Shown in pieces: positions 45,923 to 58,126 of a stretch of DNA of 64,000 nucleotides. The notes under the pieces are model-generated. The model had not been told where the DNA came from and ran no database searches. It saw only the letters and a program-made list of their open reading frames with translations. A program made the position numbers and the translations under genes. The stretch's first letter is position 1; each line of letters begins with the position of its first letter. Source of the DNA: an uncultured virus (IMG/VR IMGVR_UViG_3300030107_002792) (lineage: Duplodnaviria; Heunggongvirae; Uroviricota; Caudoviricetes; Kyanoviridae); IMG/VR virus record IMGVR_UViG_3300030107_002792; one strand, given 5' to 3'.

Positions 45923-46556
45923 AATGTTTTCTCCTCGTTGGTATTATAAGGGTAAAATTACCTTAGAAAACCAACAGGAAATTGAACGTAGTTTTTCTGA
46001 GTTTATGGACTTAGAAAAGAACTTTATTAATCCTGATAACATTAATGGTGAACTATTAACATCATATAGTTTACCAACTAATGATACAGCACCTTGGGAA
46101 AGGTGGTTAGAATTTATTAAACCATGTCTATCTGAACTGGTAGAAGAATTAAAACCTAAGAGAGATATAGAAATAGTTCCTCAAGAGGCATGGATTAATC
46201 GTTATCAAAGAGGACACTATCAAGAGTATCATTGTCATTCTGTTCAGCATTGTAATCTTGCAGCAGTATATTTTTATAGATTAGAAGGTGGATGTACTAA
46301 CTTCAAATTCTATAATAATCAACATGCAGCATATAAAGCATGTGGATTAGATGATATGTTTGATATACCAACAGCAGCAACTATAACACCTAAAGTACAA
46401 CAAGGTGATATAATTATATTCCCTGCACATTATCCTCATTTAGTATCACCTAATAAGAGTGATTTTGAACGTGTAACATTTAGTGCAAACTTTGATGTCG
46501 TGCCAGCACGTAATGTGTCACATGGTGCAGTAGGAAAGGACTTAGATCTGATATAA
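45912..46556 (+). CDS. 2OG-Fe(II) oxygenase (HxH type)
   Basis: AWINRY..GHYQEYHCH; IFPAHYPHLV; RVTFSANF. Confidence 0.88.
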   Translation: MTVEMFSPRWYYKGKITLENQQEIERSFSEFMDLEKNFINPDNINGELLTSYSLPTNDTAPWERWLEFIKPCLSELVEELKPKRDIEIVPQEAWINRYQRGHYQEYHCHSVQHCNLAAVYFYRLEGGCTNFKFYNNQHAAYKACGLDDMFDIPTAATITPKVQQGDIIIFPAHYPHLVSPNKSDFERVTFSANFDVVPARNVSHGAVGKDLDLI

Positions 46557-46579
46557 TAGGATTGAGTTCAAAGATAGTT

Positions 46580-47044
46580 ATGAAATTGCGACCAACTAAG
46601 CAAGATGTGATCTTGAATCATACTTATACTTTCGAGTGTGATGCTACATTTGGTACACTATCTCAAGAGAGAGTTTATAAACTATTCACAGATGGTAGGA
46701 GAGCATCAGGATTCTTAGAATTACAATTAGAAGATTGGTTTGAAGGTCTTGAATTTGTAGATGGTAAAGGATATGACCATATCAATCATTTGGTAGAGGG
46801 TCAACTGTATGATGCTAAATGTTTTACTAGACATGGTGCTAAATTCTGTCCTAGTGTTATGTTAGGTGCAGGTAGATCAGTTGATGAAGAGAAACTATGG
46901 GAACATGCTATGGATATGATTTATATCTTTACAGATGTAGTATCATTTCCTGAAGTAAGAGTTAGATTTGTTAAAGGATCTGATCTTACACAATATACAA
47001 ACGGATCAATTCCATTCGGAGATCGTGATGATTTATTTGGATGA
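46580..47044 (+). CDS. Putative PD-(D/E)XK endonuclease
   Basis: Helix Glu (GFLE), then GYDH...LYDAKCF; overlaps the downstream MTase. Confidence 0.6.
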   Translation: MKLRPTKQDVILNHTYTFECDATFGTLSQERVYKLFTDGRRASGFLELQLEDWFEGLEFVDGKGYDHINHLVEGQLYDAKCFTRHGAKFCPSVMLGAGRSVDEEKLWEHAMDMIYIFTDVVSFPEVRVRFVKGSDLTQYTNGSIPFGDRDDLFG

Positions 47045-47816
47045 TTGTATTGATGGTATGAAACAATTAGCAGATCAATCTGTTGATGCTGTTGTTACAT
47101 CACCACCTTATAATTTAAACATTAAGTATAACAAATACAATGATAAAAAACCAAGAGATAAGTATATCTCATGGATAGAAGATGTGTTTGTTGAATGTAA
47201 ACGTGTACTGAAAGATAATGGTCACCTATTTGTTAATATGGGATACTCAAATGTAGATCCTACGATAGGGTTAGAGGTCATGTTTGCAATTAAAAATACA
47301 TATAATTTACAAAATAATATAGTTTGGGTTAAGTCTATTCATGTAAATAACAAGACGAGTGGACATTTTAAACCTATCAATAGTAAACGCTATTTGTGTC
47401 CTACTTGGGAGAATTTGTTTCACTTTACCAAAGATGGTAATGTAGAAATAGATAGACTATCTGTTGGTGTTAAGTATGAATATTATGAAGCAAATATTCG
47501 TGGTAATAATACGATTGAGAACAAACCTAATTTAAGGGACAAAGGTAATACTTGGTTCATACCATATGAGACTATTAATAGTAAAGAATTGCGTGGTAAA
47601 CATCCTGCTACTTTTCCAGTTAAATTAGCAGAGGATTGTATTAAACTAACAGGCATAGATTGTGGTGTAGTTCTTGATCCTTTCATGGGAACAGGTAGTA
47701 CTGGATTAGCAGCAAATAATTTAGGTTGGAGTTACATAGGGTATGAAATAGATGAAGATTATGTTAAGTTTGCTGAAAATAGGATAAATGGAGGGTTGAC
47801 TTCTATATTAAAATGA
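47028..47816 (+). CDS. DNA methyltransferase, N4-C/N6-A, beta class
   Basis: VTSPPY (motif IV); HPATFP; VLDPFMGTGST (motif I); GYEID. Confidence 0.93.
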   Translation: MIYLDDCIDGMKQLADQSVDAVVTSPPYNLNIKYNKYNDKKPRDKYISWIEDVFVECKRVLKDNGHLFVNMGYSNVDPTIGLEVMFAIKNTYNLQNNIVWVKSIHVNNKTSGHFKPINSKRYLCPTWENLFHFTKDGNVEIDRLSVGVKYEYYEANIRGNNTIENKPNLRDKGNTWFIPYETINSKELRGKHPATFPVKLAEDCIKLTGIDCGVVLDPFMGTGSTGLAANNLGWSYIGYEIDEDYVKFAENRINGGLTSILK

Positions 47817-47824
47817 TATATAAT
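47796..47824 (+). promoter_or_regulatory. Sigma70-type promoter
   Basis: TTGACT, 17 nt, TATAAT. Confidence 0.7.
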
Positions 47825-47901
47825 ACTACCAATGAGATTCGTGGAAGTTACACCAAACGGAAGCAATTTCAGAAGTTAAAACAAACTTATCGAGGACTAT
47901 T

Positions 47902-49020
47902 ATGTCGAAAGCACTAGAGGTGGGACAATGGTATACTTTACCTGGAATCCCAGATATAGAAATAGCGGTATTAATTACCAAAGCATTTTTAAAGTATCCT
48001 GAGTGGATAACTCAGAGAGATACAGAGAACAGACTTAAGAAGAAAGGTGTTATAGATCACCTAAGAAAACTATTCCCTACTCATCATATTGTAGCAGTTG
48101 GAGAATTAACTGAAGAGGATGATTGGGAAGATAAAGTATATGAAGCAGGTCATACTTGGAGACTTGATGCTAACACAAGAGCAAAAGTGTGGGAAAGAGG
48201 TTTAGTTAATGAACTTCCTAAAGGTGTATTAGCAGTTAAGTTTAAGGGTAAAACTTTAAAAGATATAAGGAATATTTACTGGGCATTTGATAACCCAACA
48301 GCAGCAGAAGTAGCAGCAGAAGTTGTTACTGGATGTCTTAAATCTCTTGGTATAGAGTTACTTACTAAGAAGTTTAGGGATGGGCAATTTGTTACTTCTC
48401 TATCATATTGTTGTAAATTTGATGCACCAGATGTATATGGTACTAAAGGATTATGGTCGGAACCTGATGATGATTCAGTAACTATAACTGAATACAAAAG
48501 GACTCAGACTTTACATGCAGTTAGACATTATGCTGATACAATTAGTGCAGTTGATGAACTGTTAAGTAAGACAGGTATAATATCATATTTCGATCAAACA
48601 TTTATAACAGCACTATTCTTATTCCATAGAAAGTACGGTTGCTTTGATGATAACGTAACTAACCTATGTTTAAACCTTACAGGTAGACTTAAGGATGAAG
48701 ATGGTGAACAGGCATTAATAGCAACTGCACCTAATAAGGATGCTAAATTAAATGCTACTGCATGGATTGATAGGGAGAATAACAAATCATTCTCTAATTA
48801 TCAAGATCAATGTATTATTCAAGACAGAGGAAAAATGGAAGGTTTCTATCAAGGAGTGCCATTCTTTACCTACTGGTTATCAATCGCATCACAAAATGGT
48901 CTTAAGCATAGACAAAATAAAGGTGCAAAAGGCGGTTATACCAACTGGTTTGAAGGTACATTCCTTAAGACCAATAAAAGAGCAGCAGTTGAAAGACTAG
49001 AGAAATCACTGTCAATCTAG
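47902..49020 (+). CDS. Hypothetical protein with a possible ParB/DndB-like N-terminal domain
   Basis: QRD...RLDANTR resembles the DG(Q/N)HR motif; GAGG SD. Confidence 0.55.
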   Translation: MSKALEVGQWYTLPGIPDIEIAVLITKAFLKYPEWITQRDTENRLKKKGVIDHLRKLFPTHHIVAVGELTEEDDWEDKVYEAGHTWRLDANTRAKVWERGLVNELPKGVLAVKFKGKTLKDIRNIYWAFDNPTAAEVAAEVVTGCLKSLGIELLTKKFRDGQFVTSLSYCCKFDAPDVYGTKGLWSEPDDDSVTITEYKRTQTLHAVRHYADTISAVDELLSKTGIISYFDQTFITALFLFHRKYGCFDDNVTNLCLNLTGRLKDEDGEQALIATAPNKDAKLNATAWIDRENNKSFSNYQDQCIIQDRGKMEGFYQGVPFFTYWLSIASQNGLKHRQNKGAKGGYTNWFEGTFLKTNKRAAVERLEKSLSI

Positions 49021-49086
49021 AAACTGTCCACTAAATGCCCCATTTCATCCTGATCTGGGGTATATTAATATTGTTGAGAAATTCCT

Positions 49087-49272
49087 ATGAAATTCTTTTC
49101 TGCCAAGACACAAATCTATGGCATTAAAAAAGCACTCAAAGCGAGTGAACGTGATCCATTTCTTTATAATGAAGAAGAGATCATTAAATTAAAAACTTCT
49201 CTTCGCAAATTGCGTGAAGAGCAAGAACAAACCCGACAAATTCAAAACGGAGGATTTGGTTATGACGTTTAA
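49087..49272 (+). CDS. Early hypothetical protein
   Basis: First ORF after an early-promoter motif. Confidence 0.65.
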   Translation: MKFFSAKTQIYGIKKALKASERDPFLYNEEEIIKLKTSLRKLREEQEQTRQIQNGGFGYDV

Positions 49273-49392
49273 AAAGATTAATGTCGAATACGATCAAGAT
49301 TTTGACAACTGTCAAGAACAAGAAGATGATTGGGTTTCTTCAGTAATAGGAACTGAAGATGATGCAATTTATGATGTTCTTGCGGAGATTAA

Positions 49393-49587
49393 ATGACAAC
49401 AATTCCACGCAAATTGAAGATGCTACTTGACTCTTATGATGAGGGTATTCTTGATTCAGATGGTCAAGTAGAAATGGCACAGTTCTTAATAGATTGTGAC
49501 CTACACAATGAGTTATTACAGTATCAGAAACTATGTGATTATTTGATCGCTGAAGGTTACTGTTATGATGTACATCAGGAGGCATAA
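49393..49587 (+). CDS. Hypothetical protein
   Basis: GGAG SD; coupled to neighbours. Confidence 0.65.
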   Translation: MTTIPRKLKMLLDSYDEGILDSDGQVEMAQFLIDCDLHNELLQYQKLCDYLIAEGYCYDVHQEA

Positions 49588-49949
49588 TGAATACTTACGA
49601 AGTCCTATTACAACGTGAAATTGGTATTAATAAGACCGTATTTGTTCACGATTGTTATTATGAAGATGAAGCAAGATTGCTTGCTGAATCTCAATATGGA
49701 CTTCCAGTATTAAGAGTATTGTATAAAGGACAATCTAATAATAGCAGTGTTAATGATGTTCCTGAACCCTATTATGGTGGCACTTGGTTATCAACAATAG
49801 GGTCAGGAAATAGTTCTATTACTAATATATTAGCATTACCATTTGGTATCTTAATTATTATATTATTAATAGAATTTTGGTGGTGGTTTGTTGCTATAAC
49901 TTGCATAGGAGTTGGGTGGAGAACATATCAATATATCAAAGACGACTAG
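49587..49949 (+). CDS. Hypothetical membrane protein
   Basis: C-terminal hydrophobic hairpin; AGGAGG SD. Confidence 0.65.
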   Translation: MNTYEVLLQREIGINKTVFVHDCYYEDEARLLAESQYGLPVLRVLYKGQSNNSSVNDVPEPYYGGTWLSTIGSGNSSITNILALPFGILIIILLIEFWWWFVAITCIGVGWRTYQYIKDD

Positions 49950-50077
49950 GCATTTATTTTTGTTAATTAAGTGTCGATATTCTAACAAAAATATGATAAA
50001 TAGTGGTAGAATTAAGGTCAACAAAGATGAACTGAAATCTCATACATTATGAGTCAATAGTTTACAAGGAGGTCTAA

Positions 50078-50242
50078 TTGTCTAACAGTTTAATTTCATT
50101 CAATCATTTGGCACATTGGAAACATAGTATTAATCAATCATCACAAGATGATAAAATAGATGAGTACTTTGAATGTCTAATTGATTGCGATACACACGAC
50201 CAAAATAGTTGTAGGAGGGTATGTTCAGAGTTATTAGTTTAA
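50078..50242 (+). CDS. Small Cys-rich protein (54 aa, TTG start)
   Basis: AAGGAGG SD; ...DEYFECLIDCDTHDQNSCRRVCSELLV; late promoter ATAAATA upstream. Confidence 0.75.
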   Translation: MSNSLISFNHLAHWKHSINQSSQDDKIDEYFECLIDCDTHDQNSCRRVCSELLV

Positions 50243-50266
50243 GGGACAATTAGTAAGAATTAAGTT

Positions 50267-50304
50267 AAAAGAGGGTTTACATACCCTCTTTTTTATGGTA
50301 TAAT
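50267..50304 (+). terminator. Terminator hairpin overlapping a sigma70 promoter
   Basis: AAAAGAGGGT/ACCCTCTTTT plus T run; TTTACA 50276-50281, 17 nt, TATAAT 50299-50304. Confidence 0.75.
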
Positions 50305-50326
50305 GTATTTGAATAATATCATTATT

Positions 50327-50398
50327 ATGTGGTACATTATTTTCTGGACAGCAATTACTATGTTCATACTTGTTAAAGTAGGTGCATTTAAGAAATGA
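50327..50398 (+). CDS. Tiny membrane peptide (23 aa)
   Basis: MWYIIFWTAITMFILVKVGAFKK; ATGA overlap with the MTase. Confidence 0.45.
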   Translation: MWYIIFWTAITMFILVKVGAFKK

Positions 50399-51363
50399 AA
50401 GATACAATATTATTTGGAGATTGTCGCAAGACATTATCAGCATTTCTACCAAATAGTGCTCGTATGTGTGTAACAAGTCCACCATATTACGGACTAAGAG
50501 ATTATGGTGGAGAAGATAATCAAATAGGTTTAGAACAATCACCAGAAGAATATGTTAATGAAATGGTGAATGTGTTCAGAGAAGTTAGAAATGTATTAAC
50601 TGAAGATGGAACACTATGGTTAAACATAGGTGATAGTTATTACAACTATCGTCCTGGTAAGGGTGCTAATTACCCTAAGCAAAGTGTTAGTGAGACTAGA
50701 CAAGATTTACCTACTAATAGTAACAAACGTGCTAACAAATTAGAGGGACTAAAAGAGAAAGATTTAATTGGTATTCCTTGGATGTTAGCATTTGCATTAC
50801 GAGCAGATGGATGGTACTTAAGGCAAGATATTATATGGCATAAACCTAATCCAATGCCTGAAAGTGTAAGAGATAGATGCACTAAAGCACATGAATATAT
50901 GTTCCTCTTAAGTAAGAATAAGCATTACTATTATGATAATGATGCTATTAAAGAACCAGCAAAAGATTGGGGAACCAGAGATAGAACTAACGGCAAATAT
51001 CATAATGAGGGAACAGGATTACAACCTCATTCTGGTCTCACTAAATCATATCCAAAGAAGAATAAACGTAGTGTATGGAGTATAACTAAGAAACCATATA
51101 AGGGTGCTCATTTTGCTACTTTCCCACCTGAATTAATCATCCCATGTATTAAAGCAGGTTCAGCACTAAATGATACTATCATTGACCCATTTATGGGATC
51201 TGGAACTACTGCAATGGTAGCAAAATCATTAGGTAGGTATTACTTAGGGTGCGAATTACACGAGGATTATGGTCATTTAATAGAGCAGAGAGTGAGAGAA
51301 TATCATGTGCCAACTGACAAAGTGGTACATAATGGACTGACAACCCTCTTGGATCGTGTATAA
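50395..51363 (+). CDS. DNA methyltransferase, N4-C/N6-A, beta class (solitary)
   Basis: VTSPPYYGLRDY; WHKPNPMPES; AHFATFP; DPFMGSGTT. Confidence 0.94.
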   Translation: MKDTILFGDCRKTLSAFLPNSARMCVTSPPYYGLRDYGGEDNQIGLEQSPEEYVNEMVNVFREVRNVLTEDGTLWLNIGDSYYNYRPGKGANYPKQSVSETRQDLPTNSNKRANKLEGLKEKDLIGIPWMLAFALRADGWYLRQDIIWHKPNPMPESVRDRCTKAHEYMFLLSKNKHYYYDNDAIKEPAKDWGTRDRTNGKYHNEGTGLQPHSGLTKSYPKKNKRSVWSITKKPYKGAHFATFPPELIIPCIKAGSALNDTIIDPFMGSGTTAMVAKSLGRYYLGCELHEDYGHLIEQRVREYHVPTDKVVHNGLTTLLDRV

Positions 51364-51364
51364 T
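51307..51364 (+). promoter_or_regulatory. Early-type promoter for the structured RNA
   Basis: GTGCCAA-N8-GTGGTAC; CTGACA; TATAAT 51359-51364. Confidence 0.65.
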
Positions 51365-51368
51365 AGAA

Positions 51369-51740
51369 GAGCGAAACAGTTAAGGGTTCAACTACTCTAA
51401 CAGTTTTGAGAATGGGCAAACGCAAGGCAGGGGTGAGTAACAATTCAGGAGTCTCTTAGATGACACACTGTGGACAACTGCTCTTTATGTTTGGAGACCT
51501 CTTGTACTGCTGATGTCCTCGGACATCTGAAAAGACAGTTTTGAAGTTGTAAGTCCCACTCTCAAACAAGAAGTAGAGACATGACGTTGAATTAAAATTA
51601 CATTACCCTTAATGTTTCGCTCACCAATTAGGCAAGGATCTATGGTTGTCTCAATTCAGTTGAGAAATTACGTCCTGTAAGTCCTGTTCGAGGAGATGGA
51701 TGTGCCTCTCGGTTCGCAACCGAAGAAAGAACTAACATCC
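51369..51740 (+). ncRNA. Large multi-domain structured RNA (uncharacterised)
   Basis: 17 bp closing stem 51369-51386/51606-51622 with nested stems; two further hairpin domains; no ORF of 60 aa or more. Confidence 0.75.
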
Positions 51741-51766
51741 CTATAGTTTACTTACTAATTAACACT

Positions 51767-52045
51767 ATGCCAACTGCATCTACAGCGAAGAAAGTAACAA
51801 CACCTCGCAAAAGACGCACTCGCAAAGCAACAACAACTACAAAGAAAGTTGCTCCACTAAATACAACAGTCGCTAGACCAATCGTGTCCGAAACTGTTAA
51901 GGAACAACCTAAAGTTCAAGAAGTTGTTACTATTAAGTCACTTAAAGATTATCCTCGTGATGGATTATCTCTTGTAATTCTTCCTCTATTATATCTCGAA
52001 GCATTTACAAAAGAGATCCTTAAAGCAACAGGGACAATCAAGTAA
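51767..52045 (+). CDS. Basic protein with Arg/Lys-rich N-terminus and hydrophobic C-terminal segment
   Basis: KKVTTPRKRRTRKATTTTKK; GLSLVILPLLYL. Confidence 0.7.
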   Translation: MPTASTAKKVTTPRKRRTRKATTTTKKVAPLNTTVARPIVSETVKEQPKVQEVVTIKSLKDYPRDGLSLVILPLLYLEAFTKEILKATGTIK

Positions 52046-52054
52046 CTGTCCACT

Positions 52055-52077
52055 AAACCCCCACAAGGGGGTTTTTT
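52055..52077 (+). terminator. Rho-independent terminator embedded in the next promoter
   Basis: AAACCCCC-acaa-GGGGGTTTTTT. Confidence 0.8.
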
Positions 52078-52143
52078 ATTGCTATATTATAAATGTTGAG
52101 GCATCAACACTTATTAAATTTACATTATGAAGGAGATTTCCAT

Positions 52144-53391
52144 TTGAAAGACACATTGAGACCTCACCAGTTGCGTGCCTATAACTCAATGAGTCAGGCA
52201 AATCATGGTCAAATTGTAATACCTACTGGTGGTGGTAAAACATATATTATGATAGCAGATTGCGATAGGATACTATCAACTAATGGAAGACCTCACAAGA
52301 CATTTGTTGTAGTTGCACCTCGCATATTACTTGCTAATCAGTTATCTGATGAGTTTGAATCTGCTCTTAATAATGTTAGTATTGCACACGTACATAGTGG
52401 TGAAACACATCATTTTAGCACCACAGATCACAGATTTTTAACACACTGGGATAGCACAACTATCAGTGATAAGATTATATTTACTACCTATCATTCACTT
52501 CACAGAGTATTAGATAGTATGGTAGATATTGATAGAATATATTTTGATGAAGCACATAATGGCACTGGTAAATCATTCTTTAAGCAGATAAAGAGAGTTG
52601 CTGATTTACAAATATCACGTTTCTTTTTTACTGCTACTCCTCGTATTGCACGCTCTAAGAATAACATTAGTGCGGAAAGAGGTATGAATAATGCGGAAGT
52701 TTGGGGTAATGTATTAGAGCAAACAACAGCACAAGAGTTAATAGATAGTGGCACTATCTTATACCCTAAAGTTATACCATTTGAGAACGATAGAGAGAGA
52801 ACTAAGTTAAACGCACATGAAGTAGATAGTGATAACTTAAAGGACATACTTACCAACATAACTGATAACAATCCAAAGGTACTTGTGAGTGCTCCAACAA
52901 CAAGAATACTATGGAATATGCTCTCACAAACTGATATTAAAGATTGGTTACATGAGAGAGAATATAACATTTTACACATCACATCTAAGCATGGTGCTAT
53001 CATTAATGGTAAGAAAGTTGGTAGAGAAGAGTTCTTCAAATTGCTTACAAAATGGGGTAAAGATGATACTAAGAAGATGATAGTCTTCCATTATAGTATA
53101 CTATCAGAGGGCATAAATGTTCCTGGTTTGACTCATTCAGTGATGCTAAGAAATCTACCTAATATTGAAATGGCACAGACAATAGGTAGAATAATTAGAA
53201 TACATGAGAAGGACAAAGTTGCAATGAAAGAGGGTAAAATACCTGCTGGTCAGTATAACTTATACCATAAAAGTCATGGTCAAATATGTGTTCCAGTATC
53301 AGGTAAATACGGTCAAAGAATAGCAAAAAGGTTGCAATCTGTCGTTTCATATATCTTTATAGAGGGTATTCCACCAGTTGCATATGTTTAG
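52144..53391 (+). CDS. SF2 DExH helicase (restriction-subunit-like)
   Basis: TTG start after AGGAG; LRPHQ, PTGGGKT, FDEAH, TATP, LSEGINVP, QTIGR. Confidence 0.9.
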   Translation: MKDTLRPHQLRAYNSMSQANHGQIVIPTGGGKTYIMIADCDRILSTNGRPHKTFVVVAPRILLANQLSDEFESALNNVSIAHVHSGETHHFSTTDHRFLTHWDSTTISDKIIFTTYHSLHRVLDSMVDIDRIYFDEAHNGTGKSFFKQIKRVADLQISRFFFTATPRIARSKNNISAERGMNNAEVWGNVLEQTTAQELIDSGTILYPKVIPFENDRERTKLNAHEVDSDNLKDILTNITDNNPKVLVSAPTTRILWNMLSQTDIKDWLHEREYNILHITSKHGAIINGKKVGREEFFKLLTKWGKDDTKKMIVFHYSILSEGINVPGLTHSVMLRNLPNIEMAQTIGRIIRIHEKDKVAMKEGKIPAGQYNLYHKSHGQICVPVSGKYGQRIAKRLQSVVSYIFIEGIPPVAYV

Positions 53392-53592
53392 TGTGACAGT
53401 ACGAGTAGTGTCTACTATTTTCCCCATTGTCCCTAAAATCGACTATTATATAAGAGTAAACCAAATAACGGAGTTTATGACCACACTTTCCAAAGAAGTT
53501 TATCAACAGTTGGTTAATCCAACTCCAGTCATTAAGTATTACTTTTTGACTCCTCAGAGTGTTACTAACCCTAAGAATACTAGGAGGACAAA

Positions 53593-53802
53593 ATGAAAAC
53601 ATTTATCTATTCATTTCGCATAGTATGTGAAAACAATGATGAACCAAATCCTGTTCATTTATGTGAAGAAATACAAGCATATTTGAACAGTAATTTATCA
53701 TATTATGATGATGCAATGGATCAACATATTAATGCTGAGGTTGTGGGTTATAATGTAGAAGTAGATCAATTTAATCCATTTATTGCAGAGGAGGAGTATT
53801 AA
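53593..53802 (+). CDS. Early hypothetical protein
   Basis: AGGAGG SD. Confidence 0.7.
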   Translation: MKTFIYSFRIVCENNDEPNPVHLCEEIQAYLNSNLSYYDDAMDQHINAEVVGYNVEVDQFNPFIAEEEY

Positions 53803-53978
53803 TGAACAATCTTGATTTCCTATCACAAGTATTAGAAGATTTCTGCCTTAATTATGACTTAGAGTTTATGAGTGCAGATGATATTTTATACGGTGATTGT
53901 GATAATAAACTAGATGATAACCAGAAAGATTGGTTGAGAAACTATATCGAAGTCTGGGATACTATTGTGAACTTATGA
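53802..53978 (+). CDS. Early hypothetical protein (58 aa)
   Basis: GAGGAGG SD; MNNLDFLSQVLEDFC... Confidence 0.6.
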   Translation: MNNLDFLSQVLEDFCLNYDLEFMSADDILYGDCDNKLDDNQKDWLRNYIEVWDTIVNL

Positions 53979-54196
53979 TAGTATTACGCATACATGAGAA
54001 TAACACTGGAACGATTAATTTCGATTCAGAAGAACAATTAGAGGCATGGATTGATGCTCCTAATTATGAACAAGTACAATGGGAATACACTAATGAAGAT
54101 GTATTTCATAGGACGTATTTTGTAGAACGTAACATTAACTCTTTCACCCCAACTTCGGAGGACATTTCTAATGCAATCTGGAACAAATATGCGTAG
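53975..54196 (+). CDS. Early hypothetical protein
   Basis: ATGA coupling; MIVLRIHENN. Confidence 0.55.
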   Translation: MIVLRIHENNTGTINFDSEEQLEAWIDAPNYEQVQWEYTNEDVFHRTYFVERNINSFTPTSEDISNAIWNKYA

Positions 54197-54404
54197 CAAT
54201 CTAATCATCACACCAAAGACTTCAGCATCTATTGAGTTAGATAGCGACCAAATTAGCACTCTATTGTATATCATAGAGGGATATTGTCAAGGTGATGATT
54301 ACATTGAAGGAACTGATTTTGGTAATGATTGTGATAAGTTAGTGGAGATATTAGAGCACGCAAGTGAAACAATACCACTAGAAGATGATCCATGTTGGCA
54401 ATAG
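54189..54404 (+). CDS. Early hypothetical protein
   Basis: MRSNLIIT...; overlaps the upstream stop. Confidence 0.55.
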   Translation: MRSNLIITPKTSASIELDSDQISTLLYIIEGYCQGDDYIEGTDFGNDCDKLVEILEHASETIPLEDDPCWQ

Positions 54405-54491
54405 TGTGACAGTACAATTACTGTCTACTTTTTTCCCATTTGACTCTATTATGCCTTATTATAATAGAGTAAACAACAAAACTTTTATTTT

Positions 54492-54971
54492 ATGACTCTT
54501 ACATCAGTTGAATTCAGAGAAGAACTTCAGGGTAAACTTGAAGACAATGTATTACTTTGGACTGAAGGATTATGTGATGCTCTTGAAAAGAATTACTTTG
54601 ATTATCACCTTAGAATGATAACAAATAACTCTACAAGATACACTGAAGGAGAGTTATCAGAGTATGCACAATCTCAGTTAGATGCTATTAACAATGGCAC
54701 TGCTAATTTGATGAAGTTTAAGATAGTTACTGGACGTAAGTATCACAAAATTATACAACAAGACTACGATACATTTCAAGATAGAAATGAATATAGGGAT
54801 GGCAGTGTTCATGCCTTTGTTGATAAGAAAACTGGTGAAGTTTATAAACCAGCAAGTTGGAAATCTCCCGCAAAACATGTTAGATATGATATGAGAATTA
54901 TCAAACATAGGGAGTATTTACATAACTCACAGAATACAGGTTGGGCAGGTGGTTATCTCTATATGAGATAA
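54492..54971 (+). CDS. Conserved early phage protein
   Basis: GRKYHKI...SVHAFVDKKTGEVYKPASWKSPAK...WAGGYLY. Confidence 0.8.
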   Translation: MTLTSVEFREELQGKLEDNVLLWTEGLCDALEKNYFDYHLRMITNNSTRYTEGELSEYAQSQLDAINNGTANLMKFKIVTGRKYHKIIQQDYDTFQDRNEYRDGSVHAFVDKKTGEVYKPASWKSPAKHVRYDMRIIKHREYLHNSQNTGWAGGYLYMR

Positions 54972-55009
54972 TCTTCCCCCTCTAAGTATCATTCATTCAC
55001 CCTAATTAC

Positions 55010-55153
55010 ATGTCTACATTAACAATCACCGACTACGAATCAAATCTACTATTTGATATGTTGTACACAACAATTTCAGAGTTTAATGATGGAGAATATC
55101 CTGTAGAACTTGACACATTGTTCACCAAATTACAGGATGCAAAGTTACAATGA
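55010..55153 (+). CDS. Early hypothetical protein (47 aa)
   Basis: Hand-translated; coupled to the next ORF. Confidence 0.5.
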   Translation: MSTLTITDYESNLLFDMLYTTISEFNDGEYPVELDTLFTKLQDAKLQ

Positions 55154-55332
55154 AACTCTTTATTTCAGACGGTAAATGTTATCGTAATCACAAGTATCAG
55201 AAGAGAAGATTAAGTAAAGCAGATCACATCTATCTAATTAAAACAACAAATTGGAAGGATATTATCTGGACATACTTCTCAGAAATCGAAGACGATTTCA
55301 GACTCTTAAATTCACCTTACTCCCCTAATTAA
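55150..55332 (+). CDS. Early hypothetical protein
   Basis: ORF track; ATGA overlap. Confidence 0.55.
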   Translation: MKLFISDGKCYRNHKYQKRRLSKADHIYLIKTTNWKDIIWTYFSEIEDDFRLLNSPYSPN

Positions 55333-55333
55333 C

Positions 55334-55717
55334 ATGACTAATTATCAACAATCAGCAAATCCAAATGCAACTAATAGTGAATTAGATGCTAAGGTTATTG
55401 TTAAACAACCTAAACTAAATTCATTCCAATTAGATGAAGTTGTAGAGCAATATGCAGAGTTAGTTCTTGATAGAATGGACATGAAAGATTTAGAGCAATA
55501 TGTATATGATTCTCTATCAGATTACTACGGTAAAATGTCACAAACTGAACTAAGAGAACATATCATTGAAATGGAAAATAGTGGTGATCCCACTGATAAC
55601 TTATTTGATGAATTAGCAGAGAATGTAACAATTACAGATTTGATGAAAGAGAAAGATAGTGATGAAGATACCAGATCTTTTGGTATGCAAACATTTATTC
55701 CAGGATTCCATGACTAA
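55334..55717 (+). CDS. Early hypothetical protein
   Basis: 127 aa, acidic. Confidence 0.7.
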   Translation: MTNYQQSANPNATNSELDAKVIVKQPKLNSFQLDEVVEQYAELVLDRMDMKDLEQYVYDSLSDYYGKMSQTELREHIIEMENSGDPTDNLFDELAENVTITDLMKEKDSDEDTRSFGMQTFIPGFHD

Positions 55718-55910
55718 ACTAACATATAGTGACTCTCCATTCTTCTCAAATTGGAGTCAAAGTTACTTCACTAATTTAACATTAGATCAGCACATTGCTA
55801 ACAACAACTGGTTTATGAATACACTCACTATGTTAAAAGATGATGGTGTATTATATGTCCCAGTTCTTGATAAGAACTTCAACAGATTAGGGGAGGAAAT
55901 TAATGACTAA
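55710..55910 (+). CDS. Early hypothetical protein
   Basis: ATG 55710; LKDDGVLYVP...FN..GEE. Confidence 0.65.
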   Translation: MTKLTYSDSPFFSNWSQSYFTNLTLDQHIANNNWFMNTLTMLKDDGVLYVPVLDKNFNRLGEEIND

Positions 55911-56064
55911 CGTCACAAAGTACACTCGTGCAGGTGTTAGTGGGAAACAAATAGTATGCCCACAATGTAACAACGAAGCAAGAGTATTTCACTTCAGTTG
56001 GAGTGCATTAACCTGTCAATCTTGCAAACAAAGTATTAACAAACCCGATTGGATTCTTACCTAA
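55903..56064 (+). CDS. Small zinc-ribbon protein (53 aa)
   Basis: GGAGG SD; CPQC...VFHFSWSALTCQSC. Confidence 0.7.
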   Translation: MTNVTKYTRAGVSGKQIVCPQCNNEARVFHFSWSALTCQSCKQSINKPDWILT

Positions 56065-56270
56065 AATGACATACTACACAGTCGAAACTGACCTATTTAC
56101 TGTTGACTTTAAGGATGAATATACATACCTTAATTGTCTATTAGCAGCAAAAGATTTAGGTGTCAATTTAGATCATTACCTACTAGAATTTCAACTAGAA
56201 GATGATGATTAACCATGATATTTGACTCACTAAATGTTGTCAACTGGTCTTGTGTCACTCTTCAAACAGG

Positions 56271-56536
56271 CACAAGATCGCTTGATTTTTGCCCCATTTT
56301 ATGAGATCATAATAGTATAAAGAAATTTGATTTAAACTATTATGAGATATTCAGTTCACTGCCCATCCGCACCATTTGAGAATTCCTCATTTGTTGACCT
56401 TGCCGACTGTTGGGGTTTATGCCTCGATTTATCCGAAGAGTATGGATATGCTGAGGTCAGATATGGTGCTTGCGTCATGGGATCCTACACTAATGGACAG
56501 TAGACAAACTGCCACAAGATCGCTTGATTTTTGCCC
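56271..56536 (+). repeat. 24 bp exact direct repeat (promoter units) flanking one gene
   Basis: CACAAGATCGCTTGATTTTTGCCC at 56271-56294 and 56513-56536. Confidence 0.9.
56342..56503 (+). CDS. Small early protein (53 aa)
   Basis: MRYSVHCPSAPFENSSFVDLADCWGLCLDLSEEYGYAEVRYG...; follows a promoter. Confidence 0.7.
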   Translation: MRYSVHCPSAPFENSSFVDLADCWGLCLDLSEEYGYAEVRYGACVMGSYTNGQ

Positions 56537-56587
56537 AAATCTGTGCTATATTAAGAACATAATCAAGGACAACACAATTTTAATTTT

Positions 56588-56896
56588 ATGACTACTATGA
56601 CTAAATCTTTATTTTCACAATCTATCAATCTATGTGATGATTATCTCGGATTTGAGTGGACTCAATCCACTCGTACTTCTATGTTTGATGTATATCGTAG
56701 AGAGAACGATTTAGACGGTTCTCTTGCTATCTACCACTATGGTAATGATGTCTTCAAAGTAAGAACAATGTCTTACACTTATGACGGTTGCACTAAAGGT
56801 GACCAGATTGATTTAGGCACTTTCGATAACATTTTAGATGCACAAGATTGTGCAGAAGATTATCTTAAAGATCTTCTAATGTCTCAAGGTGTTTAA
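56588..56896 (+). CDS. Early hypothetical protein
   Basis: First ORF after the repeat promoter. Confidence 0.7.
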   Translation: MTTMTKSLFSQSINLCDDYLGFEWTQSTRTSMFDVYRRENDLDGSLAIYHYGNDVFKVRTMSYTYDGCTKGDQIDLGTFDNILDAQDCAEDYLKDLLMSQGV

Positions 56897-56929
56897 CACC
56901 TTCCCAGTAAACTTTCATTTCTTTTTATT

Positions 56930-57178
56930 ATGCAATTAACTTCAATCGGTGGATCTATGGTAATAGATTACTACCCAACAAAATCAATCTTCACTAATAA
57001 GATTATTGATGAAGTCTTCCTTAAGGTAGTAACATTTAAGGGTAAGACTATGAAAAAAAGTGTTATCGAAGGTCAGGCATATACTGACGAGTTAGTATCA
57101 TATAAGGATCACGATTATGCGATCACAATTAACACTAAACGTCCCGCACAGTTTATATCAGATAGACGATATGCGTGA
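56930..57178 (+). CDS. Early hypothetical protein
   Basis: MQLTS..GSMVIDYYP. Confidence 0.65.
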   Translation: MQLTSIGGSMVIDYYPTKSIFTNKIIDEVFLKVVTFKGKTMKKSVIEGQAYTDELVSYKDHDYAITINTKRPAQFISDRRYA

Positions 57179-57257
57179 CAGTGTACAAAGTGTCCACATT
57201 TTCCCCTAAACTATCATTTTAACCCTTATAATAAAGTATACCAAACAAATCAGACTT

Positions 57258-57539
57258 ATGACCAAAACTTCAAAGATAATGCAGAGAATTCTGCAAGTTG
57301 AGAATTTCCAGAATGTCGCATGTGTATGTGCTAACTGGCAAGAATTCGTTCAAGAATTAAGCGAGTGGGGTGTATATGGGTGTGCTAAAATAGATTTTGA
57401 TGATGAAGATCTTGACGTTTCATTATTAGATAGATTCATCAAATCTGAAAATGGATATGAAAGAACTGGTGACGATTGGAACCTTATCTATGACAATGGT
57501 AAAACACTTGTTAATAACTATGGAGGTATCTTCGCATGA
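57258..57539 (+). CDS. Early hypothetical protein
   Basis: First ORF after an early-promoter motif. Confidence 0.65.
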   Translation: MTKTSKIMQRILQVENFQNVACVCANWQEFVQELSEWGVYGCAKIDFDDEDLDVSLLDRFIKSENGYERTGDDWNLIYDNGKTLVNNYGGIFA

Positions 57540-57784
57540 ATAGTTTACAAGAATTCGTTGACTATGTTTGGTCATTCTATGGTGAACATAGTGACACAAT
57601 CTACCCGATTAAAGGTTTATCTAAGCAAGATATATTTGATGCCTTTTATGTATATAAACACCGATTATTAAAGGCATCAAATACACCTAACAACAATTTT
57701 ACTTGGGGTTACGGTGATAGTTTAGACAGAGAAAGAGTAAGAGATATTATACTAGAATTACCACAATTTACATGGAGTCATTAA
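57536..57784 (+). CDS. Early hypothetical protein
   Basis: FVDYVWSFYG...GDSLDRERVRD. Confidence 0.7.
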   Translation: MNSLQEFVDYVWSFYGEHSDTIYPIKGLSKQDIFDAFYVYKHRLLKASNTPNNNFTWGYGDSLDRERVRDIILELPQFTWSH

Positions 57785-57786
57785 CA

Positions 57787-57969
57787 ATGAGCACACTACA
57801 TCACGAGACAATTCTTGAAACTTTACATGATGAAGTTTGGGAAGAGTTTAGAATACATAACAAACTAACTGATGACCAATTAAATGAACTTTGTTGGGCA
57901 AATGAGTCAGGCACGTTATTAGCAATCGAAAAAGAAGTTGAAAAGCGTTTTGAGGATTTATGCCAATGA
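57787..57969 (+). CDS. Early hypothetical protein
   Basis: MSTLHHETILET...RFEDLCQ. Confidence 0.65.
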   Translation: MSTLHHETILETLHDEVWEEFRIHNKLTDDQLNELCWANESGTLLAIEKEVEKRFEDLCQ

Positions 57970-58126
57970 TTAACACAAAAGAAACAAAGTACGACCTCTA
58001 CGATATATTCACACCAGATGAATTGCAACAGGTTACTGACATTTTTCTTGAAGCATATTGCAGGAAAAGTGGTATTGAACCAGAGGTATTTGAAATTGAA
58101 ACTAACATTATTGTGGAGGATTAACC

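Follow-up and report, generated by a model that had tools for sequence, protein, structure and literature searches.

The gene-free gap at 51364-51766 of the window (the whole 64,000-nucleotide stretch of DNA analysed here, from the uncultured virus IMGVR_UViG_3300030107_002792, a T4-like cyanophage of the Kyanoviridae) specifies an RNA that is a mosaic of four portable modules, termed S, A, B, and C, each conserved separately from the others. The modules keep their helices, are selected as plus-strand RNA, are portable between phages, and are placed before open reading frames (ORFs). We infer that they act in cis on the RNA that carries them. The preferred reading, to which a probability of roughly 45% is assigned, is that the gap forms a modular 5' leader, which would shield or tune an early mRNA. 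The initial annotation of this DNA, made from its letters alone, had described a single multi-domain RNA of ~370 nt; four independently recurring modules are found in its place.

Four separately conserved RNA modules

The modules of the window are confined to 51369-51745 and lie as follows (P1, P2, and P3 are helices of S):

51369..51404, plus strand: 5' half of S, with the 5' arms of P1 (51369-51386), P2 (TTCAAC, 51387-51392), and P3 (CTCTA, 51395-51399)
51405..51566, plus strand: A, nested in the P3 loop of S; its connecting (closing) stem pairs 51405-51416 with 51555-51566
51420-51552, plus strand: invariant core of A, with variable hairpins at 51446-51468 and 51509-51540
51567..51625, plus strand: 3' half of S, with AGAAG (51569-51573), the P3 arm TAGAG (51574-51578), ACATGA (51579-51584), the 3' arms of P2 (GTTGAA, 51586-51591) and P1 (51606-51622), and the tail ACC
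51630..51685, plus strand: B, an irregular hairpin of 56 nt whose internal loop is CAA // UGUAAGU
51688..51740, plus strand: C, an invariant outer helix of ambiguous register around a covarying inner hairpin (51709-51723)
51741..51746, plus strand: the 6-nt palindrome CTATAG, directly 3' of C
51747..51766, plus strand: A/U-rich, weakly structured linker to the start codon

Parts of the gap recur apart from one another. In BLAST searches of phage records, P-SSM2 and P-SSM5 were found to share the 3' third (51629-51761), also just 3' of a methyltransferase gene, and the inner core (51413-51560) recurs elsewhere in an uncultured marine virus. Pattern scans of IMG/VR found a 22-mer of B in 70 viral loci, a 16-mer of S in at least 120 loci (some of them chance matches), and a 15-mer of the A core in 108 loci, about half of which were chance matches, so that 40 distinct true cores are left. 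Chance 15-mer and 16-mer matches in unrelated GC-rich contigs were dropped before counting, and the false A matches L232, L248, and L286 (a coding gene) were removed. Both anchors of S are present in 62 unique copies. By fuzzy signatures in 306 loci, the four modules and a fifth, D, occur in ~70 different orders, always co-oriented and with C nearly always last; in P-SSM5, B sits within the closing helix of S and not 3' of it, and in other contigs the A core stands alone behind promoters. The nearest virus record, G001, which has 57% of the window's sampled words in common, carries the same methylase, promoter, closing helix, and basic-protein gene, with a 2-nt loop in S instead of A and with neither B nor C. 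P-SSM7 likewise has a minimal S alone before the same basic-protein gene.

S is found in cultured phages of several genera (P-SSM7, S-SSM4, S-SSM6b, and P-SSM2/5). Among 50,697 phage records, B and C occur only in P-SSM2, P-SSM5, and uncultured marine viruses, and A only in uncultured ones. A covariance model of S (R1) detects the window copy at 42.2 bits (E 3.9e-8) and a single copy each in S-SSM4, P-SSM7, and P-SSM2; the genomes of P-SSM2, P-SSM5, G001, and two further records, G002 and G003, each hold one S signature and no more than one for B. A second R1 match in the window, at 56136-56263 (19 bits, E 0.047), is too weak to be accepted and is probably due to chance. Exact matches to the B 22-mer and to an S 22-mer numbered 0 each in 185,579 prokaryote species genomes, a search that diverged host copies would escape.

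The initial annotation had named covariation among homologues as a check on a functional RNA, and such covariation is present: compensatory changes occur in S, A, and B, and the inner hairpin of C covaries. In three alignments (S, A, and B) there are 283 G-U cells and 9 A-C cells, a bias that points to selection on plus-strand RNA. Because compensatory changes keep the helices and G-U far exceeds A-C, the plus-strand RNA is concluded to be under selection.

The S scaffold measures ~105 nt. In its 24 minimal copies, 98.1% of P2/P3 cells pair, compared with 78.4% in column shuffles, and 9 of 13 pairs have changed on both sides; none of 500 shuffles reaches any of these measures, and slid registers give 34-42%. 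P3 takes the forms CTCTG/CAGAG, GTCTG/CAGAC, CCTTG/CAAGG, and GACTG/CAGTC, and is CTCTA/TAGAG in the window. P1 was too variable for the aligner and was judged by comparing own with swapped arms: over the 62 unique copies, own arms give -17.0 kcal/mol and swapped arms -12.4 kcal/mol, and the corresponding values for P2 are -5.8 and -2.1 kcal/mol. Of these copies, 23 have a P3 loop of 2 nt, and 39 carry an insert of 15-273 nt in it (167 nt in the window); the start of this loop (to 51404) is the insertion point, and the closing helix starts at about +1.

The 34 copies of A are predicted to form the helices GCAGGGGU/ACC-UCUUGU and GAGNA/UNCUC. At the N position of the latter, the pair is C-G in 23 copies, U-A in 4, U-G in 3, and A-U in 2, and CAG/CUG is replaced by CGG/CCG in 3 copies. 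In all, 4 of 18 pairs are compensatory and the others never vary. The closing stem of A is found in no fewer than six complementary forms unrelated to one another (own arms -9.8, swapped arms -6.2; 33 distinct pairs). About 60 core nucleotides are invariant, many of them unpaired in junctions, and the hairpin tips vary. B, in 39 distinct copies, is a rod-like hairpin; 5 of its 20 pairs are compensatory, and 4 are invariant G-U pairs. Its fold energy is -13.3 kcal/mol on the plus strand versus -8.1 on the minus strand.

In 54 distinct copies of C only the inner hairpin varies, covarying through at least five complementary variants. Judged from the sequence, the outer helix possibly forms an H-type pseudoknot (GAGG..CCUC) just upstream of the start region. 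A 6-nt palindrome follows C directly in all 54 copies, in 7 versions. Only 3 of 56 cases have the hexamer a second time in the vicinity, and an intramolecular partner was accordingly rejected; the readings left are that the palindrome may be a site of RNA self-pairing (dimerisation) or a symmetric DNA site. Small ORFs in A (ATG 51486) and C (ATG 51696/51700) were also rejected as leader peptides: as judged by eye, their lengths and residues shift with the covarying stems, and one A variant has no ATG.

In the window itself, P1 (17 bp with one bulged G) appears in both the minimum free energy and the centroid structure, as do the nested helices. The piece 51369-51625 has a z-score of -2.95 (1 of 200 shuffles equally stable) and the whole gap one of -2.65 (3 of 100), with -2.55 for the opposite strand; thermodynamic support by itself is modest. 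Since 15 inverted repeats of at least 16 nt within 400 nt, nominally similar in size, are present in the 64-kb window, the closing helix alone is not decisive, and the case rests on the homologues. Of the helices drawn by the initial annotation, the 17-bp closing helix was recovered, and homologues back the two 3' hairpin domains, TTCAAC/GTTGAA, TTTGAGAATGGG/CCCACTCTCAAA, and the hairpin GATGTC..GACATC. The third helix, given as CTACT/AGTAG, has a different family register, the CTCTA/TAGAG listed above, and GTCTC/GAGAC is not kept, GGAGAC being invariant while its partner region varies.

Relatives carry further elements outside this gap. Module D (..GGTTCTACTGCCC..GGGGTTCAGGTGTAAGCGATTCCCAGTAGG..GGTGAAACC..) has covarying hairpins of its own, is found at L003 3130-3365, L001 3229-3290, and many other loci, and often lies 5' of a 36-42 aa acidic peptide (MSPNFAEFLLD...); it is not in this window. 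There are also several further hairpin types. The internal loop CAA // UGUAAGU also arises from a common closing motif, GG(G)CA(A/U).. with ..(U)GUAAGUCC(C). This motif occurs in the window (51414-51421 with 51548-51559, and 51631-51637 with 51675-51685) and at many other loci, closes B, one form of A, and several other inserted hairpins, and may be a shared protein-binding or tertiary motif.

Promoter, leader position, and downstream genes

The surroundings of the modules comprise the following features:

50395-51363: gene of an N6/N4 DNA methyltransferase, 322 aa (Pfam 5.7e-55)
51337..51364, plus strand: sigma-70-type promoter, CTGACA (51337-51342), 16-nt spacer, TATAAT (51359-51364); 11/12 consensus matches
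51364-51766: gene-free gap, 403 nt, between the methyltransferase gene and the 92-aa ORF
51767-52045, plus strand: basic ORF, 92 aa, with PRKRRTRK; conserved hypothetical protein in marine phages
52055-52074, plus strand: intrinsic terminator, 8 pairs (5 G-C) followed by a T run; closes the transcription unit

An ORF-free gap of ~400 nt, a promoter with TATAAT, a downstream gene encoding PRKRRTRK, and a terminator at 52055 had all been reported by the initial annotation, and all are present. Its proposal of a structured RNA behind a promoter also stands, since the plus strand carries a conserved one; its proposal of a separate noncoding RNA gene is not supported. No terminator-like site lies within 51365-51766, the sole one on the plus strand being that at 52055, and the gap therefore reads as the 5' leader of an mRNA. 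On the minus strand, the gap holds only ORFs of 32-46 aa.

The promoter overlaps the stop codon of the methyltransferase gene. As a class, promoter-like sites are not enriched in 50300-53500 (9 found, 13.0 expected). Sites scoring at least 10 are found upstream of 34 of 105 S copies, compared with 22 of 525 random pieces from the same loci, and those before S copies sit mostly at one fixed distance. In S-SSM4, a perfect TTGACA-17-TATAAT lies directly 5' of P1 of S, matching the placement in the window. Judged by promoter type alone, the leader mRNA would be expressed early.

An ATG-initiated ORF of at least 30 aa begins within 200 nt in 128 of 167 module clusters, and 31 of the 35 distinct clusters lacking one fall less than 200 nt from the end of the locus. 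C ends 22-28 nt short of the ATG (10-90% range, n=43; median 26) across unrelated linkers and genes, and the median distance to the next ATG-ORF is 19 nt after S and 28.5 nt after B. The start region of the window ORF (51746-51800) is weakly folded (-5.0 kcal/mol, z -0.37), and no Shine-Dalgarno sequence was seen in the linker at 51747-51766. The ORFs behind the 128 clusters are varied: 31 are phrog_1987-like, 16 belong to the basic family of the window, 14 are acidic peptides of 36-42 aa, 3 are ArdA-like, 1 is a helicase, and 63 are other.

In marine RNA libraries from 4 studies, S+A, B, and C are represented by contigs, parts of the stretch being uncovered; the contigs break at module borders and then run into other module combinations. 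These contigs are compatible with transcription of the modules but are no proof of it, and they give neither transcript boundaries nor abundance.

In the marine virus AG-345-L05 (L003 2703-3107), the gene behind the leader encodes an ArdA-like anti-restriction protein (PHROG 8.4e-30), and in P-SSM2 (L001 2640-3089) it encodes a phrog_1987 protein with an HHWDGYP motif. S-SSM4 (L307 1384-1509) has a 41-aa, very basic, unannotated ORF (MRLKNHESPRK...) between S and tRNA-Val. The locus looks like an early counter-defence hotspot.

P-SSM7, a Prochlorococcus phage, is the top cultured match over 46000-58000, its methylase-to-helicase part being 79.1% identical. The 92-aa basic ORF matches neither a Pfam nor a PHROG family, and a homologue search returned 78 clusters without a name. 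A ResIII/DEAD helicase gene lies 3' of the terminator; its product has no PDB sequence match at E ≤0.001. As listed, this ORF (52093-53391) begins at ATG 52093, inside a promoter-proximal hairpin. The part matching Pfam starts after ATG 52126, and the homologue in P-SSM7 starts further 3' still; translation probably begins at 52126 or beyond. The interval 52088-52108, 3' of the terminator, holds a -10-like TATAAAT and this hairpin, the tiny stem-loop GTTGAGGCATCAAC (52095-52108). In G001 (L004, about 1955-2095) the same small hairpin encloses an A-like block of ~120 nt, and the two look like the empty and the filled site of one promoter-proximal hairpin.

Comparison with known RNA elements

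A search of Rfam 15 gave 0 matches at the gathering threshold in the 64-kb window, and at E ≤10 only 4 weak matches in 51200-52200, none of them inside 51365-51766. The comparison took in GOLLD, ROOL, OLE, manA, wcaG, PhotoRC, and glnA (cyanophage motifs), as well as small ribozymes, and it agrees with the initial annotation, which did not recognise the RNA as one of a described family. Short structured modules in varying orders are represented by BIMEs in E. coli and BOX elements in pneumococci, which are present in tens to hundreds of copies per genome. Unlike these, the modules described here occupy one locus per phage genome and have 0 exact-pattern matches in the 185,579 prokaryote species genomes.

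A parallel in genomic setting may be drawn with PeSLs (promoter-early stem-loops) of T4-type coliphages. As characterised in sections of Arbiol et al. 2010 (PMC2839356), these are elements of ~50-100 bp, many per genome, in which a sigma-70-type early promoter is joined to a structured element, the stem-loop being a terminator around or before the promoter; they lie in hypervariable regions before small ORFans and differ in mosaic fashion among related T4-like phages. The window shares the strong sigma-70-like early promoter within the element (CTGACA-16-TATAAT). In contrast, it has a single locus rather than many copies in hyperplastic regions, and its folds lie downstream of the -10 and lack a T run, so that they do not resemble terminators or attenuators. 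Moreover, the folds are 55-260 nt long, are located in the leader downstream of the start site at about one locus per genome, and covary at the RNA level. Cyanophages are not mentioned in Comeau et al. 2014 (PMC4122927), which also treats PeSLs.

A second likeness concerns exoribonuclease-resistant or 5'-protective RNA structures of viruses, for example the coremin motif (xrRNA-C), which, in the portions of PMC6546385 and PMC10520033 that define it, is a compact fold portable across unrelated viral contexts; it has a 5' hairpin (hp1) of 3-4 bp, the loop of which reads YGAD or YGNNAD, and then a conserved spacer that includes AACUA. Here too, compact folds would be met first by a 5'-to-3' or 5'-end-dependent nuclease, and the string AACUA is present in C (GAACUAAC) and before P3 of S (UAACUAC). 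The pattern of hp1 followed by the spacer is absent from the gap; in module loci it does not recur, its few scattered occurrences (no more than 2 copies each) all falling in coding sequence. Membership was rejected, and a functional meaning of the likeness is speculation only.

Yfr1/Yfr10-type cyanobacterial small RNAs carry the unpaired undecamer ACUCCUCACAC, according to the relevant part of PMC2190773. Mimicry of this motif was rejected, as the undecamer is absent from the gap within 1 edit and the sole match with at most 2 edits, at 51558, was dismissed; across 248 oriented loci there are 8 sense and 6 antisense matches within one edit. A survey of structured RNAs in viral intergenic regions of IMG/VR is reported in PMC10690425, of which the sections describing the candidates list 8,495 of 29-151 nt, many less than 25 nt from start codons; the modules share both this source and the size range. 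In the main text of that paper, cyanophages figure only in the introduction. The literature search found no paper on these modules, individual candidates of PMC10690425 being outside the comparison.

Possible roles of the modular leader

According to the preferred reading, an mRNA would be made from the host-type promoter at 51337-51364, encode the 92-aa basic protein, and stop at the terminator at 52055. P1 of S would pair the first nucleotides of the transcript with the distal strand, A being inserted in the tolerant P3 loop and B and C following S in tandem, with C ending at the fixed distance of 22-28 nt before the start codon. The modules would hide the 5' end, and their compact folds would slow 5'-end-dependent decay (by host RNase E or RNase J) while leaving the ribosome a defined, unstructured landing pad without a Shine-Dalgarno sequence. 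The outcome would be reliable expression of an immediate-early gene in a methylase/anti-restriction neighbourhood.

Several observations weigh against such a cis-acting leader. S is kept while the gene behind it changes by genus (the basic protein, a phrog_1987 protein, or a 41-aa ORF and tRNA-Val), and A, B, and C can be absent; a role of the RNA's own therefore fits at least as well as a gene-specific role in cis. A simple stabiliser leaves both the ~60 invariant nucleotides of the A core and the obligatory palindrome of C unexplained. B and C fold with unremarkable thermodynamic z-scores (-1.49 and -1.45, respectively). Covariation is silent on the main helices of A and on the outer helix of C, all of which are invariant, and cell counts from sequences so closely related do not represent independent events. 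In addition, RNA-library contigs extend upstream of the predicted start, with loose ends before 51345 and 51359, which may reflect DNA carry-over or read-through.

The main rival, although it is itself rather doubtful, is that the modules act in trans, as RNAs produced in large amounts at the onset of infection and perhaps cut from the leader. Such RNAs would act by binding a host factor or as decoys for it, candidates being a nuclease, a defence sensor, or RNA polymerase, and the palindrome of C, present in 54/54 copies, would lead to dimers or larger assemblies; homo-oligomers are indeed formed by phage-associated ornate RNAs, as stated in part of PMC12286853. The constancy of single-copy S across genera while the downstream gene varies suits this reading, as do the many invariant unpaired nucleotides in A and the gain and loss of accessory modules between close relatives, as in an arms race, in a neighbourhood with DNA methyltransferases and, in L003, the anti-restriction protein. 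However, the leader contains neither a terminator nor a processing site that could be recognised, its distance from the start codon is fixed, and ORFs follow nearly all leaders, most exceptions lying near locus ends. A broader version, considered unlikely, is that at least five portable RNA modules form a population-wide kit of marine cyanomyoviruses and are themselves the payload: shields or decoys against host nucleases and defence sensors, nested and stacked at one immediate-early leader next to methylase and anti-restriction genes, with the palindrome of C joining RNAs into dimers or larger assemblies and turnover reflecting an arms race.

Conservation could instead act on DNA, the modules being recombination linkers that, like PeSL cassettes, serve to swap gene cassettes, with folding incidental. 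The mosaic locus with its presence/absence differences among close relatives would suit such linkers, and the mismatched P1 arms of some S copies (L064, L134, L142, L192) resemble fresh recombinants; upstream joints of terminator plus promoter are common, contigs from RNA libraries are interrupted at the edges of modules, and the hexamer 3' of C could represent a symmetric site in DNA. It is the RNA-level signature that makes this reading distinctly unlikely: compensatory double changes keep the helices, an excess of G-U over A-C is unexpected for DNA hairpins or plain homology blocks, and hairpin tips vary while cores are invariant. Furthermore, genomes hold about 1-3 modules, in contrast to the dense PeSL repeats described in portions of PMC2839356.

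The aptamer-like conservation of A, with its invariant junction nucleotides flanked by variable covarying stems, and the putative H-type pseudoknot of C raise the question of whether at least one module, most likely A or C, might control the leader or process it, as a riboswitch sensing a ligand or as a self-cleaving ribozyme. This is improbable, given that Rfam gave no match, including to all curated riboswitch and small ribozyme classes, that no expression platform (a terminator or a helix sequestering the start site) was found in the leader, and that the downstream genes are functionally unrelated.

A dedicated ribonucleoprotein of the RNA and the Arg-rich 92-aa protein, an idea of the initial annotation, is very improbable: in the window, in P-SSM7, and in G001 the RNA is indeed followed immediately by the gene of this very basic protein, and S-SSM4 has its small basic ORF after S, but only 16 of 128 module clusters precede the window's protein family (31 precede phrog_1987-like ORFs, 14 the acidic peptide, and 3 ArdA-like ORFs), and in G001 and P-SSM7 the protein is accompanied by minimal S alone. 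A primer for a replication origin is unsupported, as GC skew stays positive along the whole window and does not turn near 51.4 kb, an observation that is not decisive.

T4-like cyanophages are among the most abundant marine viruses, and, to our knowledge, how they secure the first minutes of gene expression is poorly known. The modules indicate that structured RNA can evolve like gene cassettes, as folding blocks that are swapped, inserted into loops, and lost. At least four uncatalogued RNA folds are thereby made available together with cultured systems, namely P-SSM7 (minimal S), P-SSM2 (S-B-C), and S-SSM4 (S). Should the modules protect messages against RNase E or RNase J, or act as decoys for host factors, they would constitute a new layer of phage-host conflict and might provide compact stabilising leaders for cyanobacterial engineering.

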